Below, piece by piece: positions 39,027 through 46,800 of a stretch of 64,000 nucleotides of DNA; the first letter of the stretch is position 1, and every line of letters begins with the position of its first letter. The notes below the pieces were generated by a model that did not search any database, was not told where the DNA came from, and worked only from the letters and a program-made list of their open reading frames with translations. Source of the stretch: Minisyncoccia bacterium. GTDB lineage: Bacteria; Patescibacteriota; Minisyncoccia; SW-4-49-11. The stretch spans positions 24,602 to 88,601 of the forward strand of contig JBIKWJ010000002.1 in NCBI GenBank assembly GCA_044356325.1. Reading direction: 5' to 3'. Made by a program: the position numbers and the translations under genes.

Positions 39027-39668
39027 ATGGATATCTTCTTTAGCTACCTTATGGACAATGGTGTGCCGCGTGAAACTATCGACATTCTTTTGATGTTCCC
39101 GATTATGGCAGGATTTATTGTAGCCGCCCGACAAATTGTGGGGATTAAAGCTTTTGGTATATATACACCGCTTATTATTACCTTTGCTTTAACAGAAATT
39201 GGCTTCAAATATGGGGTGAGTATCTTTATTGTATCCCTGATTGTCGCTTCTATTGTCCGATATCTCCTTCGTAAAATTCGTATTCTGTATTTACCCAAAA
39301 TGGCTTTGATACTATCTATTACTGCCTTATCTATGTTTTTGAGCCTAGTATGGGGAATATTCTCGGATAGCACCGTCTTTGTACAGGCTTCTATTTATCA
39401 GATTCTTATTATTATTACACTGGTAGAAAAATTCATCAATGCTCAAATGGAAAAAGGATATCGCACTGCCGTAACTCTCTCTGTAGAAACCTTAGTTCTT
39501 GCATCTCTTGGAAATTTAATTATGACCACTACTCAGCTAAGAGACCTCGTTTTCTATAATCCTTGGATTATTTTAATTGTCTTTGCGGGAATTATATTCC
39601 TTGGACGCTATGAAGGACTCCGTATTTCTGAATATATCCGATTCCGTAAAATTATTAGCAATCAATAG
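39027..39668 (+). CDS. 7-TM membrane protein (7TM domain of the kind usually fused to inactive transglutaminases), first gene of the ATP-grasp cluster
   Basis: 213 aa with seven hydrophobic helices. Lies 3 nt upstream of a RimK-related ATP-grasp gene. Confidence 0.55.
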   Translation: MDIFFSYLMDNGVPRETIDILLMFPIMAGFIVAARQIVGIKAFGIYTPLIITFALTEIGFKYGVSIFIVSLIVASIVRYLLRKIRILYLPKMALILSITALSMFLSLVWGIFSDSTVFVQASIYQILIIITLVEKFINAQMEKGYRTAVTLSVETLVLASLGNLIMTTTQLRDLVFYNPWIILIVFAGIIFLGRYEGLRISEYIRFRKIISNQ

Positions 39669-39671
39669 GCT

Positions 39672-41099
39672 ATGAATTGGCTAGAATCATTCGTATTTAG
39701 TCAAAAAATACTCGGGATGAATGCCCGCAACCTTTCCTATATCAAACCCTACAATTATCGTAAATGGGTACGCCTAGTAGATAATAAAATTAAATTCAAA
39801 AAAGAATTACAGAAACATAATATCCCAACCCCAAAACTCATCACCACAGTGCGCTCTTATGAAAAACTCAATGAATTTGATTATAACAAACTCCCTAAAA
39901 GCTTTGTATTAAAACCAACTTCTGGATTTGGAGGAGAGGGAATCGTGGTAATATTTGGAGAACATAAAAAAAGAACAGGAGATGGAGAAAGGCAATGGGT
40001 TAAAACCAAGGGAGTTAAACTCAGCGAGACTGTGATACATAATCATATAAGTAATATTCTTGATGGAACATATTCTCGTACCAATAGCCCTGATGTGGCC
40101 TTCTTTGAGGAGCGAATTAAACTTAACAAATCATTCAAACATCTTGCCTATAAAGGAATCCCAGATATTCGCGTGATTGTATTCAATCGAATTCCCGTAA
40201 TGGCAATGATACGAATCCCTACCAAAGAATCTGATGGTAAAGCTAATCTTCATCTAGGAGGAATTGGTATTGGTATTGATATGGCAACAGGAGTTACTAC
40301 CAATGCTATTATGAGAGAAAGATTCATAGACACCATTCCAGGAACGGAAATCAGTCTCTCTGGTATACGTATACCTTATTGGAATACAATTTTAGATATT
40401 GCTATTCGTACCGCTGATATTACTAGATTAGGATTTACAGGAATAGATATTGCTATTGACCGCGATGCAGGCCCCGTTGTATTAGAAGCGAATGCCCGAC
40501 CGGGTCTCGCTATTCAAATTGCCAATCTCGCCCCACTCAAAGAAAGATTACAAAAAGTAAAAGGACTTAAAGTAAAAACGGTAAAAAGAGCTATTCGACT
40601 TGCCAAAGATTTATTTGGAGGAGAAATTGAAGAAGAAATTGAGGAAATTACTGGACGACAAGTGATTGGGCTTATTGAAGAAATTACATTATTTGGCAAA
40701 GATGATAAAAAACAAACTATAGAAGCCAAGGTAGATACGGGAGCCGACTCCTCCAGTATAGACGAAGCTTTACTGATTAAAATTGGCTATGGAGAGGTAT
40801 TAAAAGAGTTCAAAGCTTTGAATATACCCGAGGATATAGAATATAATACTCTTAATAAGTTGACTGATACTATAAATATCAAGCTTAAGTCACAAGAAGC
40901 TCCCCATCTACTCAAAAAGGTTGCCATTATAAAAGCTGGGAATGGATATACCGTTCGCCCTTTTATAAAAATCCTCGTGAAAGTTGGAGATGATATAACT
41001 GAAACAACATGCTCAATAGTAAAGCGATCTCATTTAAAATACCTTTTTCTGTTAGGAAAACAGGATTTAAAAAGATTTATTATTGATCCGAGGAAATAA
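39672..41099 (+). CDS. Alpha-L-glutamate-ligase-like (RimK-related) ATP-grasp enzyme fused to a C-terminal retropepsin-like aspartyl protease domain
   Basis: N terminus ILGMNARNLSYIKPYNYRKW (RimK-like ATP-grasp N-terminal signature), ATP-grasp core FVLKPTSGFGGEGIVV, and a C-terminal domain with EAKVDTGADSSSID (a D-T-G-A aspartyl-protease motif, as in RimA/PF05618-type proteins). Confidence 0.6.
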   Translation: MNWLESFVFSQKILGMNARNLSYIKPYNYRKWVRLVDNKIKFKKELQKHNIPTPKLITTVRSYEKLNEFDYNKLPKSFVLKPTSGFGGEGIVVIFGEHKKRTGDGERQWVKTKGVKLSETVIHNHISNILDGTYSRTNSPDVAFFEERIKLNKSFKHLAYKGIPDIRVIVFNRIPVMAMIRIPTKESDGKANLHLGGIGIGIDMATGVTTNAIMRERFIDTIPGTEISLSGIRIPYWNTILDIAIRTADITRLGFTGIDIAIDRDAGPVVLEANARPGLAIQIANLAPLKERLQKVKGLKVKTVKRAIRLAKDLFGGEIEEEIEEITGRQVIGLIEEITLFGKDDKKQTIEAKVDTGADSSSIDEALLIKIGYGEVLKEFKALNIPEDIEYNTLNKLTDTINIKLKSQEAPHLLKKVAIIKAGNGYTVRPFIKILVKVGDDITETTCSIVKRSHLKYLFLLGKQDLKRFIIDPRK

Positions 41100-41101
41100 T
41101 A

Positions 41102-42067
41102 CTATATCGATTTGGTTTCTGGAAATAGAAGATCTATAATAGCCTTTTGAGGCTTAGTTGGTGTTCCAAATGTTGGTGTAGTATGTATAGTTAAGCCCGG
41201 GACTATATTTAACTCTAGAACACATGGATTAGGATTGTTTATATCCGAAGTTATAATATCAATACCTACAACTGGCAACTTAAAATCTAAAGATAGTTTA
41301 ATTGCAAACTGCTTCAGTCCTTCTGGTAAAAATTCAGTCATTTCCTCTGATGACCCACCATCATGTGAATTAGCTTTATAACTTAACTTTATAATTTCTT
41401 TATCTTTAGGGATATAATCTAAAGTTAGTGACTGTTTAGCCAATATATTTTTAATACTATCCCCAACCTCTACTATTCTTGTACTATTAACTGCGTTATC
41501 ATTATATATTACAATCAACTCTTGTATTGAATGTTTGCCATCTCCAATAACTTGAAAGGGGGTTCTTTTGACTAAGAATACATCTTTATTACCGATTACT
41601 AAAATCCTATACTCATCTCCCTGCACCATTTCCTGTACTAAAGATCTATCTTTATGCTTTTTTCCCATATTACAAGCATGTTCTATCGCCTTTTCTAACT
41701 CTTTACTATTTTTAATATTTACAGTAATACCTTTACCTCCAAAACGATCTAGTGGTTTTACAACACAAGGAAATAAATTAAAATTCTGAGAAAATTGCTC
41801 TAACTCAGCTAAATAAACTATTTGGGTTTTAGGGATTATATATCCATTTTGATTTAATAAAACTGATTGAATATATTTGTCTTTTAATATTCTACTTTTA
41901 GATGCTCCTGTATAATTGTTTAGGGTGTTTTGAATATATTCTTCATGATCTCCATACTTTAAAACAGCAAATGTCGCACTAACTTCAAGAAATAGTTGGA
42001 CATCAATCCCCCTACTTTCTGCTTCTTCTACGATTGGTTTTAGAAAGATGTCTATTTCAAACTTCAT
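41102..42067 (-). CDS. ATP-grasp ligase (cyanophycin-synthetase/glutathione-synthetase-like)
   Basis: CVVKPLDRFGGKGITV...EMVQGDEYRILVIG matches the ATP-grasp fold. Confidence 0.6.
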   Translation of the reverse strand: MKFEIDIFLKPIVEEAESRGIDVQLFLEVSATFAVLKYGDHEEYIQNTLNNYTGASKSRILKDKYIQSVLLNQNGYIIPKTQIVYLAELEQFSQNFNLFPCVVKPLDRFGGKGITVNIKNSKELEKAIEHACNMGKKHKDRSLVQEMVQGDEYRILVIGNKDVFLVKRTPFQVIGDGKHSIQELIVIYNDNAVNSTRIVEVGDSIKNILAKQSLTLDYIPKDKEIIKLSYKANSHDGGSSEEMTEFLPEGLKQFAIKLSLDFKLPVVGIDIITSDINNPNPCVLELNIVPGLTIHTTPTFGTPTKPQKAIIDLLFPETKSI

Positions 42068-42155
42068 ATTATATGATATAATTAATGTATTATTTATTAT
42101 AAATATTATACTTAAAAAGTATTGTAATGTCTACACTGTGTCAGATACCTTGCTT

Positions 42156-43013
42156 ATGAAAAATATAATTTCTATTCAATTAAAAGAAGAAGCCATACCT
42201 TTTTTTGATAAAACTTTTAGAAAGTTTTATATATTATCATCTTTTACTAAATTTAAAGAATTAACCTATAAAAAAAGCTCGATCTTTTATAAAGGCACCC
42301 CTCTTGAACAGCATGACTTTATATTTATAGGGCTAACGGGAAAATCTAGAGATTTAGCCCCGATAGTAATAGATTATATTAAGCGGTACAATATTCCTTT
42401 TATATGTTATGGTCATAAAACAGCCGATCATGCTAAGACATTTGAAATATATAAGCTAACCTCTGATAATATCCCTATTATTCCTTCTTTAATCTCAAGT
42501 GATCAGAATGCAATAGCTGATTTTATAATCCAATATACCCAACTATTTATAACGAAACCTATAAACGGAAAAAAGGGGAGAGAAATATTACAACACTCAT
42601 CTTTAGAGTCCATAATGGACGCTATACAAAAATCTGAAATTCCCCTAATCATTCAGCCTATGATCCCTAATGATGGAGACTATCGAGTTTGGATATTAAA
42701 AGGAAAAGTTATAGGGGTAATCAAGAGAAGTCCTAATACAGAGGGTGAGTTTAGATCTAATATTTCTCTTGGTGGAAGTGCTCAATTAGCAGAACTTCCT
42801 GATGATGTATTAGATATGGCTATCAAATCAGCAAAAATTCTAGATTTAGATATGGCTGGAGTAGATATTATTCAAGATATTAATACCAAGAAGTATTATA
42901 TTATGGAAGTAAATGCAGCCCCACAATTCAACGGTTTTATGGCCACAACAGGAATTAACTTATTTGAAATTATCACAAAGCATATAATACAAGAAATTGA
43001 ATCTAAAAAATAG
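42156..43013 (+). CDS. RimK-family ATP-grasp (alpha-L-glutamate ligase-like)
   Basis: KPINGKKGREI...GDYRVWILKGKVIGVIKR...GEFRSNISLGGSAQL...AGVDIIQD...YYIMEVNAAPQF parallels RimK motifs. The start is adjusted from the ORF-track 42048 to MKNIISIQL because 42048 overlaps the divergent gene. Confidence 0.65.
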   Translation: MKNIISIQLKEEAIPFFDKTFRKFYILSSFTKFKELTYKKSSIFYKGTPLEQHDFIFIGLTGKSRDLAPIVIDYIKRYNIPFICYGHKTADHAKTFEIYKLTSDNIPIIPSLISSDQNAIADFIIQYTQLFITKPINGKKGREILQHSSLESIMDAIQKSEIPLIIQPMIPNDGDYRVWILKGKVIGVIKRSPNTEGEFRSNISLGGSAQLAELPDDVLDMAIKSAKILDLDMAGVDIIQDINTKKYYIMEVNAAPQFNGFMATTGINLFEIITKHIIQEIESKK

Positions 43014-43031
43014 TATAAAATTATAAGAACT

Positions 43032-44879
43032 ATGTCTATTGAAACTAATAATCCAATTTATGAAAATAACTCTGAAGCAAACCACTTATTTCCAGAAAGG
43101 CCTTCCTATTCTGCTGAGAAAAACTTAAAAGAAATTCTAGAGTATTTATCCGGAGACAGGGAAAAAGAAGTGTTAACAGATGAAGAAAAGTTAGAGTTAA
43201 TAGCTTTTGAAGAGCCTTTTGTAGACAAGTTAGCAGAAGCATATTCTATAGAATATAACACAAAAACATTATATCCTGAATATTTTGATACTACTGAAGG
43301 GCAAGATGCTTTGAAAGAATTAGATATAATTTCAGAATTATATCCTGATAACAATACTCCTATTGATATCAGAACAAATATTGATGTTTTAAGAAAACTG
43401 GATCCTGAGTCCTTGGCTAAATTAGGGGAAAAAGGTCTAAAACATCACACTAAAACAATGTTAGAGAACTTATCTCATCGTATTGCTGAAGATGGGCATC
43501 TAGATATAGAAGGACTCGAGAATCCAGAGAAAATAATGTTTGTTAAAAAGCCTGAAGAGTTAATTCGGAAAATTGAATCCCTGAGGACTCTAAAATCAGA
43601 GCTAGAAGAAGCAAGATCCGCACTGTTCCTAGAGGAAGCTTCTATTGCAAATGAAGAAATTGATTCTCTAAAAGAAAGTCTCTCTCTAATCCATGCAAAA
43701 TTATATAGTCTTAAACATTTAATTAAAAAGGTAAATGTTTTATTAGCTGAAGCTTTAGAAGATAAAGCTATCCTAGATGCTGAAGCAGATTTGCCATCTC
43801 ACAAACCAAAGTATAAATTAGATAAGTTTAGATATGGAGTTGGGCAGATGAATTCTAAAGGTAATTATGACCAAATAGACAGCAGATTATTACAACAAGC
43901 TGATGAAATAGCTGAGGAACATATTAAGTTAAATCAAGAAAAAGCATCTATCCTAGCAGAACAAGGATTAGATGTAAAAAAAATGGAAGCTGAAAGTGTT
44001 GAGCCTGAGCAAGTGAAAGAATATATAGAGAGAGTTTTAGCAAGCTATGATCTTTTAAGCGAATATCCTGCAGATGCCGATCAAGTAGACAATAATATTA
44101 AACCCGCTGATAATAAATGGAGATGTTACATAAAGCCTAATCAGTCCGTATTTGAAATTGATAGCAAAAGTAAAACTTTATTTATTCCCACCAAAAACCG
44201 ATCTATTATAGATGTATTAACTAAAGGCGCTACTCATGAAATAATTCATATCCTGCAAAGAGAAAATACTGCTGAAATTGGACTGCCTTTATATACTAAT
44301 CCCGAACAAATGGGTGGAGATAGATCTGATTTATTCCAAGAAGGAGGAGCTATGTATTATCAAGATCAGGCTTCTCAAGCATTATTTAGCTTTGATAGCC
44401 CTCCAGGACCCCACTATCTAAGAGCTATAGCTGTCAAACAAGCTGGAGGAGATTATTTAGCTTGTGTCAAAGCTTATTATGAAAGCACTATATCAGTCAA
44501 TCCTAAAAAATCAAAATCGGCTCTCAAGACGGCTCTTAGTAGTGCTAGAAGATTATTCCGTAACTCAATCAATTTTAATAATACCGACCGCTCTATTCCT
44601 TCTACCAAAGACACTGTTTATCTAGAGCAAAAGGCGGTAGTGGAAGAAATTTTAAAATACCCTGAACTTCAAAATCTTATTTTAGTATCTGGAATTAATC
44701 TCGAAACAGCAAAAAAAATGATTCATTTTGGGTTATTAGATTTAAGTAGGCTCAGAACACCAGATTTATCTTATATCAAAGAGCTTTGGGAAGAATTACG
44801 TCCTGATTATACATTAGATCATGAACCCCAAGACCCAAATCCCGCTCTCACCCCTCCCTCCGATCTCCCCACAGTATAA
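43032..44879 (+). CDS. Large acidic HExxH protein with a QEGGA motif (DUF1704 / QEGLA-motif-family-like; putative metallopeptidase-like)
   Basis: THEIIHILQ (HExxH) followed about 30 aa later by LFQEGGAMYY. Confidence 0.5.
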   Translation: MSIETNNPIYENNSEANHLFPERPSYSAEKNLKEILEYLSGDREKEVLTDEEKLELIAFEEPFVDKLAEAYSIEYNTKTLYPEYFDTTEGQDALKELDIISELYPDNNTPIDIRTNIDVLRKLDPESLAKLGEKGLKHHTKTMLENLSHRIAEDGHLDIEGLENPEKIMFVKKPEELIRKIESLRTLKSELEEARSALFLEEASIANEEIDSLKESLSLIHAKLYSLKHLIKKVNVLLAEALEDKAILDAEADLPSHKPKYKLDKFRYGVGQMNSKGNYDQIDSRLLQQADEIAEEHIKLNQEKASILAEQGLDVKKMEAESVEPEQVKEYIERVLASYDLLSEYPADADQVDNNIKPADNKWRCYIKPNQSVFEIDSKSKTLFIPTKNRSIIDVLTKGATHEIIHILQRENTAEIGLPLYTNPEQMGGDRSDLFQEGGAMYYQDQASQALFSFDSPPGPHYLRAIAVKQAGGDYLACVKAYYESTISVNPKKSKSALKTALSSARRLFRNSINFNNTDRSIPSTKDTVYLEQKAVVEEILKYPELQNLILVSGINLETAKKMIHFGLLDLSRLRTPDLSYIKELWEELRPDYTLDHEPQDPNPALTPPSDLPTV

Positions 44880-45354: not shown

Positions 45355-46800
45355 ATGAATAGAAACGCACAAAAAATCTTTGCCCGATCACTTATGATTC
45401 TTTTCTTTATCATAGCTCCGATACTGGTTTTATATGGTATGGGATATAGACTTAGTCGTGATAATAATGATTCTCCTATATTGACTTCTACTGGAGGAGT
45501 TCGAATAAATACCAAAATTGCCTATGAAATCACTATCAATGATAAATTAGAGTCTAAAAGTCCGCTTTTAAAAGTTGGGCTTGCTCCTCAAGATTTAAAT
45601 ATTGTCTTATCACTACCAGGATATCAGTCATGGGCTAAAAAAGTATCTATACAGCCCTCTTTTGTACAATTAATTAGTGATGTAACTCTTTTTCCTGAAA
45701 AGCCTGAATTAGAGAAATTTAGTGACCTATCCACAGCTCGTAATATACAAAGAGTACCTGATGCTTCTTCAATACTATATACTTCTTATAATCCCAAAGA
45801 ATCCGGACTTTGGGTTCTGAATCTTGACACCAAAATACGCAAGAGACTTACGGATAGTGTGGCTCTTGGAGGCCTAGATAATCAAGATTATTCTGATTTT
45901 ACTTGGAATAATACAGGGAATATTCTTAGCTTCAAAACTTCACTTAATAATGTATTCCAATATTTTGTTATCACCAATATTGATACAACTCCTATTTTAA
46001 CTAATATTACGAATCAATTCCCTATTGCTGATACAATAGCTAGTCCCATTAAAGTCGTGAGCCTAGATGCTGATACTTTGACTTTTATTCAAGGAGGATC
46101 TCTGTATAAGCTTACCCAACAATTTAGTATTCGCTCTGATGCTCTTGTAGCAAATATAACCCATAGTGATTTGGTAAATAATACTATTTATTATTATTCT
46201 GATAAAGATAATACTACAAATATTATTCGGATTTACACCCTTGATACCAAAAAAAGTACCGCAGTTGATACCCCCGATATTGCTATTGATAAAATAATTG
46301 TCAGCCCCAATCAGGGACATATTATTATTATTGATGATAAACAACATGCTTGGCTCAAATCGCTTGGGGAGAAAACTCCAGGATTTAATCAAATATCCGA
46401 TCTTGAGATAAACAACATACAATTTAGCCTAGATTCCAAAAAAGCACTCCTAAAGAGCAAAAATAGCCTTTCTATTCTATATCTTGATACCGTTGAGGGG
46501 TACAAATCCCGCGTAGAGGGAGACTTTGACACATTATATAGTAGTGAGAATCCAATCACTCAAGCTGAGTTATGGGAACCAAATTCAGAATATGTCTTAT
46601 TTATTGAAAATAATACCCTGAAAGTGGTAGAATCTGATACCAGAGGATTAGTAAACTCCTACACCCTACTAGATAATGTCATGAATACAGCCAGCATCAA
46701 ATTACGCAATGATGCTAAGACAATTATCACTAATACTAATAATATTATTCAGTATTTTAGCTTCCCTATTCGTACCCCTCTTATTAATCTCAACAATTAA
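45355..46800 (+). CDS. Membrane-anchored extracytoplasmic hypothetical protein (481 aa)
   Basis: N-terminal TM helix LMILFFIIAPILVLYGMGY, then a beta-rich domain with possible PEGA-like or beta-propeller character (not verified). Confidence 0.5.
   Translation: MNRNAQKIFARSLMILFFIIAPILVLYGMGYRLSRDNNDSPILTSTGGVRINTKIAYEITINDKLESKSPLLKVGLAPQDLNIVLSLPGYQSWAKKVSIQPSFVQLISDVTLFPEKPELEKFSDLSTARNIQRVPDASSILYTSYNPKESGLWVLNLDTKIRKRLTDSVALGGLDNQDYSDFTWNNTGNILSFKTSLNNVFQYFVITNIDTTPILTNITNQFPIADTIASPIKVVSLDADTLTFIQGGSLYKLTQQFSIRSDALVANITHSDLVNNTIYYYSDKDNTTNIIRIYTLDTKKSTAVDTPDIAIDKIIVSPNQGHIIIIDDKQHAWLKSLGEKTPGFNQISDLEINNIQFSLDSKKALLKSKNSLSILYLDTVEGYKSRVEGDFDTLYSSENPITQAELWEPNSEYVLFIENNTLKVVESDTRGLVNSYTLLDNVMNTASIKLRNDAKTIITNTNNIIQYFSFPIRTPLINLNN

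Follow-up and report, generated by a model that had tools for sequence, protein, structure and literature searches.

The five genes at positions 39027 to 44879 of the window (the whole 64,000-nucleotide stretch of DNA analysed here), which comes from an ultra-small bacterium of the Patescibacteria, encode a 7TM membrane protein (g1), a fusion of an ATP-grasp ligase and a retropepsin (g2), two further ATP-grasp ligases (g3 and g4) and a putative MATCAP-like peptidase (g5). On the whole, we give an even chance to reading the locus as the form that the Rlo (RloABC) system takes in Patescibacteria, extended by an add-on module and serving to make and trim an acidic peptide or tail. A dedicated system had been proposed in the preliminary description, and the idea holds at that level, as all the predicted domains are real and the neighbourhood is recurrent. 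The accompanying statement that no member had been characterized is outdated, since there are by now studies of rloABC, RloA, RimB, RimBK and MATCAP (PMC12239564, PMC11957791, PMC10499314). All five open reading frames are present with the positions and lengths first described, the intergenic gaps were recomputed at the same 3, 2 and 18 nt, g3 does lie on the minus strand, and the ORF track of g4, beginning at 42048, does run 20 nt into the start of g3.

The g1-g2 pair and the Rlo system

The first gene, g1 (39027..39668, plus strand, 213 aa), matches PF14402 7TM_transglut in a Pfam profile search (9.5e-25). Seven hydrophobic segments are found in it, in agreement with the seven TM helices counted before, and many of its charged residues are invariant. 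Of the 508 positions of the NCBIfam RloB model it covers 312-506, with a score under the model cutoff, and it aligns to residues 309-501 of RloB from the Legionella adelaidensis plasmid (L089), the canonical RloABC reference in our comparisons, with 28% identity (3e-18). By these alignments g1 is only the C-terminal 7TM half of RloB, being 213 aa long against 508 and having no periplasmic inactive-transglutaminase domain. The AF2 model of g1 has a pLDDT of 85.5, and its structural comparison gave no informative match.

In g2, the N-terminal domain (aa 1-313, 39672..40610, plus strand) is an RloC-type ATP-grasp ligase. It matches TIGR02291 at 3e-84 with 282.7 bits (the cutoff of 314.2 is not reached), PF14397 ATPgrasp_ST at 2.5e-68 and Legionella RloC with 37% identity over 307 aa (3e-67), while TIGR00768 scores far lower at 52.7 bits; its E-x-N metal motif (E272, N274) is invariant. 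The C-terminal domain (aa 331-475, 40662..41099, plus strand) is a retropepsin-like aspartic endopeptidase of RimB/RloA type, which matches PF05618 Zn_protease/RimB-like (2.7e-8), the NCBIfam profiles of RloA3 (5e-7) and RimB (2e-3), Legionella RloA with 29% identity (2e-8), and PDB entries 2pma (4e-4) and 9g58, the latter of which we take to be RloA. The TIGR02291 and PF05618 matches agree with the earlier view of g2 as a RimK-related alpha-L-glutamate-ligase-like ATP-grasp enzyme joined to an aspartyl protease; the label RimA given to the retropepsin was mistaken, the partner of RimK being RimB. Between the two domains lies a linker (aa 314-329, 40611..40658, plus strand) of sequence LFGGEIEEEIEEITGR, which begins where the end of Legionella RloC corresponds to g2 F315. 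Across 84 fusion proteins conservation reaches 95% or more at its L314, F315, G316, G317, E318, E320, E324 and G328, and judged by this the acidic linker is an invariant, fusion-specific segment.

The residues of the retropepsin point to the kind of chain it may bind. K353, D355, T356, G357, A358, R429, R452 and G462 are invariant, so that the domain keeps K-x-DTGA (DTGA at 40734-40745, plus strand) and two invariant Arg, R429 and R452, 23 positions apart. In RloA, poly-Glu is coordinated by K46 (two before the catalytic D48), R114 and R137, and polyE cleavage needs these residues (PMC12239564). The spacing of R429/R452 equals that of R114/R137, and together with a partial sequence alignment to 9g58 this suggests that the Lys and Arg of g2 are presumably poly-Glu-binding residues of the RloA type. 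An acidic substrate also fits g2, because the protein is basic (pI 9.6).

Relatives of g2 are encoded in at least 558 stretches of a one-genome-per-species collection, and the fusion gene is immediately preceded by the 7TM gene in every one of the 81 loci with enough upstream sequence, almost all of them Patescibacteria. Like RloABC, g1 and g2 carry the same three domain families, keep the DTGA and K/R residues, and have the membrane-protein and ligase genes adjacent. They differ in that the protease of RloABC is separate and secreted with a signal peptide while that of g2 is fused to the C terminus of a cytoplasmic ligase, in gene order (A-B-C against B-C::A here), in the additional ligases and MATCAP-like peptidase attached here, and in host, as Proteobacteria reportedly account for 96% of the sequence hits of RloB (PMC12239564). 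In Pseudomonas, Rlo is a recently described envelope-stress system, studied genetically for P. aeruginosa rloABC and by structure and biochemistry for RloA (Lormand et al. 2025, PMC12239564). Mutants that lack all three RloA proteases have defects which are suppressed when rloB or rloC is deleted, and therefore RloB and RloC make something that the protease must remove. RloC shares only 24% identity with RimK, and RloC-type ligases, those of Pseudomonas included, have no demonstrated substrate or product.

Accessory ligases and a putative MATCAP-like peptidase

The third gene, g3 (41102..42067, minus strand), encodes a stand-alone ATP-grasp ligase of 321 aa. It matches TIGR02068 at 7e-57 over profile positions 163-475 only, and the PDB sequences of cyanophycin synthetase 7wac (3e-36) and GshAB 3ln7 (1.6e-33). 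By sequence it is related to the ATP-grasp of GshF/NAGGN synthetase and to the cyanophycin synthetase G domain, aligning over its full length to an ATP-grasp whose reaction joins an amino acid to the C-terminal carboxylate of a peptide, and it differs from CphA1 in having no N and M (Mur-ligase-like) domains. A cyanophycin synthetase proper was rejected for g3, given its stand-alone 321 aa and 193 bits against a cutoff of 850. The next gene, g4, belongs to the RimK family, with matches to PF08443 (1.4e-26), TIGR00768 (2.7e-32; 112 bits, the cutoff of 143 not being reached) and the RimK entries 5zct and 4iwx in PDB (about 5e-17). The profile and PDB matches thus uphold both genes as ATP-grasp proteins. 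The true start of g4 is probably M37 at 42156 instead of 42048, which gives a protein of 285 aa (42156..43013, plus strand), because the ortholog in locus L001 (78.5% identity) has 285 aa and its alignment begins at that Met. The divergent spacer between g3 and g4 (42068..42155, 88 bp) is AT-rich and holds promoter-like sites: the top sigma-70-like match of the region, TAGACA-17-TATAAT (11/12, minus strand, 42133-42105), and a weaker one on the plus strand (42073-42100), both being consensus matches only.

The last gene, g5 (43032..44879, plus strand), encodes 615 aa and is acidic (pI 4.9), with the HEIIH (44235-44249) and QEGGA motifs noticed before. Its metal site consists of HE...H and a downstream Glu within an (E/Q)EG motif (E437, 44340-44342). 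The kinship with DUF1704 suggested in the preliminary description is found by remote-homology methods and by no direct Pfam or NCBIfam match; hhalign gives 99.5% to PF08014-positive proteins at the same cluster position in relatives. On this ground g5 is predicted to carry, at its C terminus, a divergent gluzincin carboxypeptidase domain of MATCAP/DUF1704 type. The MATCAP/TMCP enzymes (KIAA0895L, PF08014/DUF1704) trim the acidic tails of tubulin and also cut polyglutamate chains back (PMC10499314). As a distant relative of these, g5 shares the metal site and differs in being bacterial, in having HExxH where the family has HExxxH, and in carrying about 330 aa more at its N terminus, a helical region in which a YPERPS motif is invariant. 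The g5 family is small, with 456 representative clusters among 1.84 billion proteins, and its distant homologs (L003-L005) lie far from any ATP-grasp gene.

Among the 67 loci whose downstream sequence extends for 5 kb or more, one to three extra ATP-grasp genes are present in 60, g3-related genes being found in the clusters of other loci, while 7 have none of the accessory genes. A MATCAP-type gene occurs in 12 of the 67, in two forms at the same cluster position, the g5 type and the canonical PF08014 type. Two genomic contexts that are unrelated to each other, SufBD/RNase H and RuvC/PBP1, hold such clusters, and the recurrence claimed for the ATP-grasp/7TM/retropepsin/metallopeptidase neighbourhood is real. 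Co-conservation of all five genes stands for g1 and g2 and fails for g3-g5, which are missing in close relatives (L010, L014 and L015) with fusion proteins 65-80% identical to g2. GC is 0.28-0.32 across 41.0-43.5 kb (g3, g4 and the first part of g5) against about 0.36-0.37 in g1 and g2. Overall, g1 and g2 form an invariant core, and g3-g5 a variable, lower-GC accessory module that is dispensable.

Product, location and competing readings

Neither signal peptide nor TM segment is present in g2-g5, therefore ligation and trimming would take place in the cytoplasm, and g1 would be the one membrane component; this qualifies the earlier phrase "possibly at the membrane", as the enzymes are all predicted cytoplasmic. 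The most plausible substrate is an acidic peptide or C-terminal tail.

RimK and RimB resemble g2 in that an ATP-grasp glutamate ligase is coupled to a cytoplasmic poly-Glu retropepsin, and a natural fusion exists. RimB cuts runs of at least six Glu and boosts poly-alpha-Glu synthesis by RimK, RpsF is the target of both, and a hybrid protein of RimB and RimK has proteolytic activity (Little et al. 2025, PMC11957791). Considering also the RimK-family paralog g4, the cytoplasmic enzymes and the protein C-terminal tails targeted by the MATCAP family, the ligases might add Glu to the tail of a specific protein, such as ribosomal protein S6 (RpsF) or a membrane-associated protein, from which the retropepsin and MATCAP-like peptidase remove it, with the 7TM protein only regulating or localising. 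We think this unlikely, as the invariant ligase is RloC-type and not RimK-type by the above TIGR02291 and TIGR00768 scores, g4-type genes are optional, and the fusion is always paired with a 7TM protein that a ribosomal target does not need. RimBK itself has an N-terminal protease, a RimK-clade ligase and no 7TM partner, unlike g2 with its C-terminal protease and RloC-clade ligase. No acidic-tailed candidate substrate is encoded in the window, outside which the S6 gene lies, or among the fetched loci, which counts against both this reading and the Rlo-like one.

A decoration of the envelope appears improbable to us. In it the ligases would put amino acids or short acidic peptides on a cell-wall glycopolymer or peptidoglycan precursor at the cytoplasmic face, the 7TM protein would handle an intermediate that is exported or linked to a lipid, and the peptide would be edited by the peptidases. 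The polyE-type binding residues and MATCAP-type peptidase point to a peptide chain and not to single amino-acid decoration. A class A PBP follows the cluster in 55 of the 67 loci, in Moraniibacteriota, and some clusters have GT4 glycosyltransferases (8), YdjC-like (6) or Mur-ligase-like proteins (4), but no PBP, glycosyltransferase or YdjC gene stands beside the cluster in the window and its clade, and the RuvC...PBP flanks may be mere backbone synteny of one phylum. What speaks for such a role beyond gene neighbours is that the top Pfam family of g2 is named "sugar-transfer associated ATP-grasp", that the accessory region differs among close relatives as in many surface-polymer loci, that rlo mutants show cell-shape, beta-lactam and osmotic phenotypes, and that mutants of the RloB-like gene hm2192 overproduce vesicles in a transposon screen on membrane vesicles (PMC12096838).

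That only g1 and g2 make a system, with g3, g4 and g5 as unrelated neighbours gathered in a variable intergenic hot spot, would suit their absence from close relatives, the lower GC, the opposite strand of g3 and the g5 homologs away from ligase genes, but is very doubtful given that in 60 of 67 loci, and in two unrelated contexts, the fusion is followed by further ATP-grasp genes, and that two distinct MATCAP-type subfamilies, that of g5 being itself small, recur at the same position in 12.

Weighing against the Rlo-like reading are the dispensable accessory genes, the distant g5 homologs far from ATP-grasp genes, the HExxH of g5 and the sub-cutoff NCBIfam scores of g1, g2 and g4. Under this reading, the most likely function is that an acidic peptide or tail, probably poly-α-glutamate, is made and trimmed in the cytoplasm in a way coupled to the membrane. 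Which amino acid is joined to which acceptor, what g1 does and what the system achieves biologically we infer as follows. Paired with g1, the single polypeptide g2 would use ATP through its ligase to link an acidic residue, L-glutamate or another, to a carboxylate, giving a poly-alpha-glutamate-like chain at the membrane inner face. Its retropepsin, as a dimer, would cleave long acidic chains endoproteolytically and, by analogy with RimB and RimK, may both cap chain length and stimulate the ligase. The CphA-G-like g3 and RimK-like g4 could prime, extend or diversify the chain, and g5 would trim it from the C terminus one residue at a time. The product may be linked to the membrane by g1, which would either export it or serve as its docking or acceptor site, and the output in this ultra-small bacterium would probably be on the cell envelope, as the rlo phenotypes of Pseudomonas suggest.

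The Rlo-type fusion protein and its membrane partner

The five-gene cluster at 39027-44879 of the window is a new architectural variant of the known Rlo system, widespread in Patescibacteria, and is not categorically new. The preliminary description had regarded it as a peptide-ligase or peptide-modification system of which no member had been characterized, a statement now outdated, as rloABC (PMC12239564), RimB/RimBK (PMC11957791) and MATCAP/TMCP (PMC10499314) have been studied. In Pseudomonas aeruginosa, rloABC encodes the secreted retropepsin RloA, the inactive-transglutaminase-7TM protein RloB and the ATP-grasp protein RloC; RloA, which is dimeric and has a DTGA motif, cuts runs of at least eight Glu, poly-Glu being coordinated by K46, R114 and R137, and deletion of rloB or rloC suppresses the defects arising from loss of proteases, with a role of the system in osmotic and envelope stress tolerance (PMC12239564). 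The system also has effects on cell shape, biofilm formation and tolerance of antibiotics in Pseudomonas. RimB, which needs at least six Glu, stimulates the poly-alpha-Glu synthesis of RimK, and a RimB-RimK hybrid with the RimB domain as residues 1-163 is proteolytically active (PMC11957791). The MATCAP/TMCP enzymes shorten polyglutamate chains and trim the acidic tails of tubulin (PMC10499314). For direct comparison we used the canonical rloABC of a Legionella adelaidensis plasmid (L089:6906-9202), in which no signal peptide is obvious at the annotated RloA start and the next two genes, on the opposite strand, encode C1-family peptidases.

The second gene, g2 (39672-41099, plus strand, 475 aa), encodes a ligase and a protease on one chain. 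Its residues 1-313 form an RloC-type ATP-grasp domain, matching TIGR02291 at 3e-84 with 282.7 bits, under the equivalog cutoff of 314.2, and PF14397 at 2.5e-68 with 230.7 bits (cutoff 31.4), compared with 52.7 bits on the RimK model TIGR00768. Legionella RloC, whose end falls exactly at F315 of g2, shares 37% identity with the domain (3e-67). The same RloC-type ligase family reaches haloarchaea, as an unannotated ORF on the Halobacterium sp. DL1 plasmid CP007061 (106179-107009) is 37% identical to this domain. Residues 331-475 of g2 form a RimB/RloA-type retropepsin (PF05618, 2.7e-8; RloA3, 5e-7), with 23-30 bits on the NCBIfam RloA1-3 models against cutoffs of 210-280; the domain aligns to the Legionella RloA-like structure 2pma and to 9g58, and is 29% identical to Legionella RloA (2e-8). 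Among the fusion proteins K353-x-D355-T-G-A358, R429 and R452 are invariant or at least 95% conserved, and the second retropepsin motif, LLGK with G462, is conserved as well. R429 and R452 lie 23 residues apart, the same distance as R114 and R137 in RloA, and by spacing and alignment, not by structure, K353, R429 and R452 probably correspond to the poly-Glu-coordinating residues of RloA.

The two domains are joined by the 16-residue linker LFGGEIEEEIEEITGR at 40611-40658 (aa 314-329), which begins exactly at the end of stand-alone RloC. Across 84 fusion proteins its pattern LFGGE-x-EEE-x-EE-x-x-G reaches at least 95% conservation, and it is confined to fusions. Since the linker has no more than three contiguous Glu, and RimB needs at least six and RloA at least eight, a tether or pseudo-substrate seems more likely than a site of self-cleavage. 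The whole protein is basic (pI 9.6), which fits an acidic substrate.

The gene upstream, g1 (39027-39668, plus strand, 213 aa), encodes a protein with seven hydrophobic segments that scores above the cutoff of PF14402, 7TM_transglut (9.5e-25), and carries many invariant charged residues, including R35, K41, E134, E154, R199, E202 and R205. It is 28% identical to residues 309-501 of the 508-residue Legionella RloB and its alignment to NF052267, the RloB model of NCBIfam (75.5 bits against a cutoff of 900), is confined to the final ~195 positions, so that g1 is the 7TM half alone, whereas RloB carries in addition an N-terminal periplasmic inactive transglutaminase. A few loci have long 7TM proteins (517-546 aa in L071 and L076), and in L073 the N-terminal extension of such a protein (1392-2948) is a PKD domain rather than a transglutaminase-like one; in L073 the fusion gene is also followed by a separate retropepsin ORF of 157 aa.

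The alignments of g1 and g2 to Legionella RloA, RloB and RloC thus show that, of the Rlo domains, the window lacks only the periplasmic transglutaminase-like one. The arrangement differs from both relatives: RloA is separate and secreted with a signal peptide, whereas the retropepsin here is fused to a cytoplasmic ligase; RimBK has its protease N-terminal to a RimK-clade ligase, whereas in g2 an RloC-type ligase is followed by the protease. A literature search gave no description of this Patescibacterial form of Rlo.

Gene linkage and the variable downstream module

A pattern scan of a one-genome-per-species collection gave at least 600 matches, of which at least 558 encode a g2 relative, and the best 80 of these loci were analysed. 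Nearly all belong to Patescibacteria (Moraniibacteriota, Paceibacteria and Falkowbacteria); those labelled Bdellovibrionales, Gammaproteobacteria, Bathyarchaeia or Fimivivens have the Moraniibacteriota RuvC to PBP synteny, and their labels probably come from mis-binned MAGs. Wherever enough upstream sequence was available (81 of 81 loci), the 7TM gene lies directly upstream of the fusion gene on the same strand, and g1 and g2 are an obligate pair.

Downstream of the pair the gene content varies. Among the 67 loci with at least 5 kb of downstream sequence, the number of additional ATP-grasp genes is zero in 7, one in 22, two in 22 and three in 16, and a MATCAP-type gene is present in 12 (5 of the type of g5, the last gene of the window's cluster, and 7 canonical PF08014). 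Other downstream genes in these loci encode GT4 glycosyltransferases (8), YdjC-like (6) and Mur-ligase-like (4) proteins and DUF3541 (2). The variation is seen among close relatives: L001, with a fusion protein 90% identical to g2, has the same genes as the window and a second RimK paralog; L009, at 91%, continues with two genes like g3 (the third gene of the cluster), one RimK-like gene, DUF3541 and a canonical MATCAP gene, without g5; L012, at 80%, is without g3, and its g5 homolog is split in two ORFs; and L010, L014 and L015, at 65-80%, run straight on to the RNase H gene. Distant g5 homologs without an adjoining ligase gene occur in L003-L005. The cluster of CP064989, a complete Moraniibacteriota genome, ends with a homolog 28% identical to g5 (1e-60). 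Genes g3-g5 are accordingly a facultative, fast-changing accessory module, yet one recruited repeatedly and non-randomly to this spot. The earlier reading of all five genes as one system therefore holds for the invariably linked g1-g2 pair with its recurrent downstream ligases and MATCAP-type genes, and not for g3-g5 as a fixed set, as these vary and are missing altogether from L010, L014 and L015.

The clusters stand in two genomic contexts, between SufBD and RNase H genes in the clade of the window and between RuvC and class A PBP genes in Moraniibacteriota. The gene at 45355-46800 of the window encodes a protein of 481 aa that has a hydrophobic segment at its N terminus and matches no Pfam family. 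Every close relative keeps this gene next to that for RNase H, and it is part of the genomic backbone, outside the variable module. DUF3541 (PF12060) proteins are found inside some clusters (L009:14321-15313, where the gene adjoins the canonical MATCAP gene, L013:3174-4154, and one gene in L056). In others (L018:13226-14440, L068, L083 and L085) there are Mur-ligase-like proteins of ~400 aa that consist of Mur_ligase_M and C without the N-terminal domain, an architecture which we take to resemble the poly-gamma-glutamate synthase PgsB/CapB, or MurT.

Within the window, the positions and tight packing first described for the five genes agree with the ORF list and a gap check, with intergenic gaps of 3, 2 and 18 nt. 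The fourth gene, g4, is tracked as an ORF at 42048-43013 (plus strand), overlapping the start of g3 (41102-42067, minus strand, 321 aa). Its true start is most likely M37 at 42156, because the 285-aa ortholog on a related contig aligns from that Met. The upstream start at 42048 was rejected as an artefact of a translated AT-rich spacer, as it overlaps g3 and is missing from the ortholog; the 36-aa extension would be hydrophobic. Starting at M37 leaves an 88-bp AT-rich divergent spacer between g3 and g4, which holds the best promoter-like consensus match of the region (11/12), pointing to g3. The G+C content is 0.28-0.32 across 41.0-43.5 kb (g3, g4 and the start of g5) against ~0.36-0.37 for g1, g2 and the flanks, and the low value at 41000-43500 fits a separate history of the accessory module. 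A terminator scan found nothing between the convergent g2 and g3, an Rfam scan of 38.5-45.5 kb gave just one sub-threshold snoRNA match, attributed to chance, a repeat scan gave short chance matches only, and the PADLOC anti-phage defence models matched none of the five proteins.

Accessory ligases and a MATCAP-like carboxypeptidase

The protein g3 consists of a single ATP-grasp domain, homologous to the G domain of cyanophycin synthetase and to the ATP-grasp domains of GshF and NAGGN synthetase. Cyanophycin synthetase has N, G and M (Mur-ligase-like) domains in one protein of ~870 aa, whereas g3 has neither N nor M; as it spans only positions 163-475 of the profile (193 bits against a cutoff of 850), its identification as cyanophycin synthetase was rejected. 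The protein g4 is RimK-like, with 93.7 bits on PF08443, above cutoff, 112.2 bits on TIGR00768 (cutoff 143.4) and ~5e-17 to RimK entries in the PDB. Its matches to MvdC/MvdD-type graspetide models are weak (8e-7 and 1.8e-3), far under the RimK match, and gaps of 2-18 nt are too small for a precursor ORF, so a graspetide or RiPP maturase was rejected.

The last gene, g5 (43032-44879, plus strand, 615 aa), has no direct Pfam or NCBIfam match, with none to PF08014 at E<=0.1, and a PDB sequence search with the profile of its family gave nothing even at E<=10, so that fold and profile-profile methods were needed. The family is small, with 34 word-index matches and 456 representative clusters among 1.84 billion proteins, most members having 600-620 aa. 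In 39 diverse members H402, E403, H406, E437 (in QEGGA), R507, Y530 and E532 are invariant, which is the gluzincin signature, and 3 of the 39 match PF08014 weakly (best E 1.9e-4). At the same cluster position other Patescibacteria have bona fide PF08014 proteins (2.4e-27, 6e-21 and 2.6e-14), and a profile-profile comparison of these with the g5 family gives 99.5% probability, E 6e-23, over 360 columns. Given these four lines of evidence, with a shared fold and profile-level homology to MATCAP/DUF1704, g5 is assigned by sequence comparison as a divergent metallocarboxypeptidase of that family. The analysis defines a family of ~600-aa MATCAP-like proteins, absent from Pfam, as a previously unrecognised accessory. 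The window's clade has HExxH (HEIIH at 44235-44249), whereas more distant members, PF08014 proteins and MATCAP have HExxxH, so the window's form amounts to the loss of one residue within the metal-binding helix.

The N-terminal helical half of g5, ~330 aa, belongs to no recognisable family. It contains the motif YPERPS at 43089-43106 (aa 20-25), which is invariant or nearly so among the first 21 homologs, some at 28-33% identity: P21, E22, R23 and S25 are invariant, and Y20 and P24 at least 90% conserved, while in the more diverse set of 39 just R23 is still at least 90% conserved. In L012 (13171-15103) the two ORFs of the split homolog encode 336 and 313 aa, and the split may reflect either pseudogene formation or a frameshift introduced by sequencing.

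A proposed acidic-chain chemistry in the cytoplasm

No signal peptide or TM segment was found in g2, g3, g4 or g5, which places all catalysis in the cytoplasm and leaves g1 as the sole membrane component. The comparisons above establish the domain identities, the conservation of catalytic and substrate-binding residues, the gene linkage and where the enzymes are located, whereas the model that follows infers which amino acid is used, what accepts it, what g1 does and what the physiological outcome is. The proteins g1 and g2 would act as a membrane-associated complex, in which the RloC-type domain would build a chain or tail out of acidic residues, most likely alpha-linked L-Glu. The fused retropepsin, dimerising via g2, would shorten long chains by cleavage and, like RimB with RimK, may also stimulate the ligase. 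Then g3 and g4 would prime, extend or diversify the chain, g5 would trim it from the C terminus, and g1 would export the product or dock it at the membrane, with an effect on the envelope. To this model as a whole, covering g1-g5, we give an even chance.

A RimK-like modification of a cytoplasmic protein is, in our judgement, unlikely. Searching the window for acidic C-terminal tails and for runs of at least six D/E found none, and the matches in the fetched loci, all of them scattered acidic linkers located in the extracellular portions of neighbouring PBPs or in unrelated proteins, were rejected as substrates. The gene for ribosomal protein S6, whose C terminus is polyglutamylated in the RimK/RimB system, lies outside the window. 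The decoration of a wall glycopolymer or a peptidoglycan precursor would be in line with the PBP, GT4, YdjC and Mur-ligase neighbours in Moraniibacteriota and with the envelope phenotypes of rlo mutants; we consider it improbable, and a peptide chain is favoured because the polyE-type residues are conserved and MATCAP-type peptidases are recruited repeatedly. It is very unlikely that g3-g5 are unrelated passengers, variable as they are, beside their repeated and non-random recruitment. The repeated arrival of MATCAP-type proteins and of extra RimK/CphA-like ligases gives independent genomic support for acidic-peptide (poly-Glu-like) chemistry.

ATP-grasp ligases belong to the same superfamily as TTL/TTLL, and the pairing of ATP-grasp and MATCAP is known from the tubulin tail cycle. 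A doubtful extension of the model is a self-contained bacterial 'glutamylation code', with ATP-grasp writers and, as erasers, a MATCAP-family carboxypeptidase and a poly-Glu endopeptidase, acting reversibly; its target in these ultra-small symbiotic bacteria could be membrane-associated or an exported acidic peptide. If this were true, the fast-changing ligase set would lead to strain-specific products, the functional pairing of ATP-grasp and MATCAP-type enzymes would be older than eukaryotes, and the toxic Rlo product would be made and edited inside the cell before reaching the envelope.

On the whole, the Patescibacterial form is a minimal Rlo, with a 7TM-only partner and with ligase and protease on one cytoplasmic chain, and the count of at least 558 stretches encoding a g2 relative in the one-genome-per-species collection shows that it is widespread. 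Reconstitution could practically start from a single soluble fusion with a small membrane partner. The 7TM domain and the ligase-protease pair are always present, which does not hold for the transglutaminase domain or for secretion of the protease, and the taxonomic distribution speaks against an origin of Rlo specific to Gammaproteobacteria.
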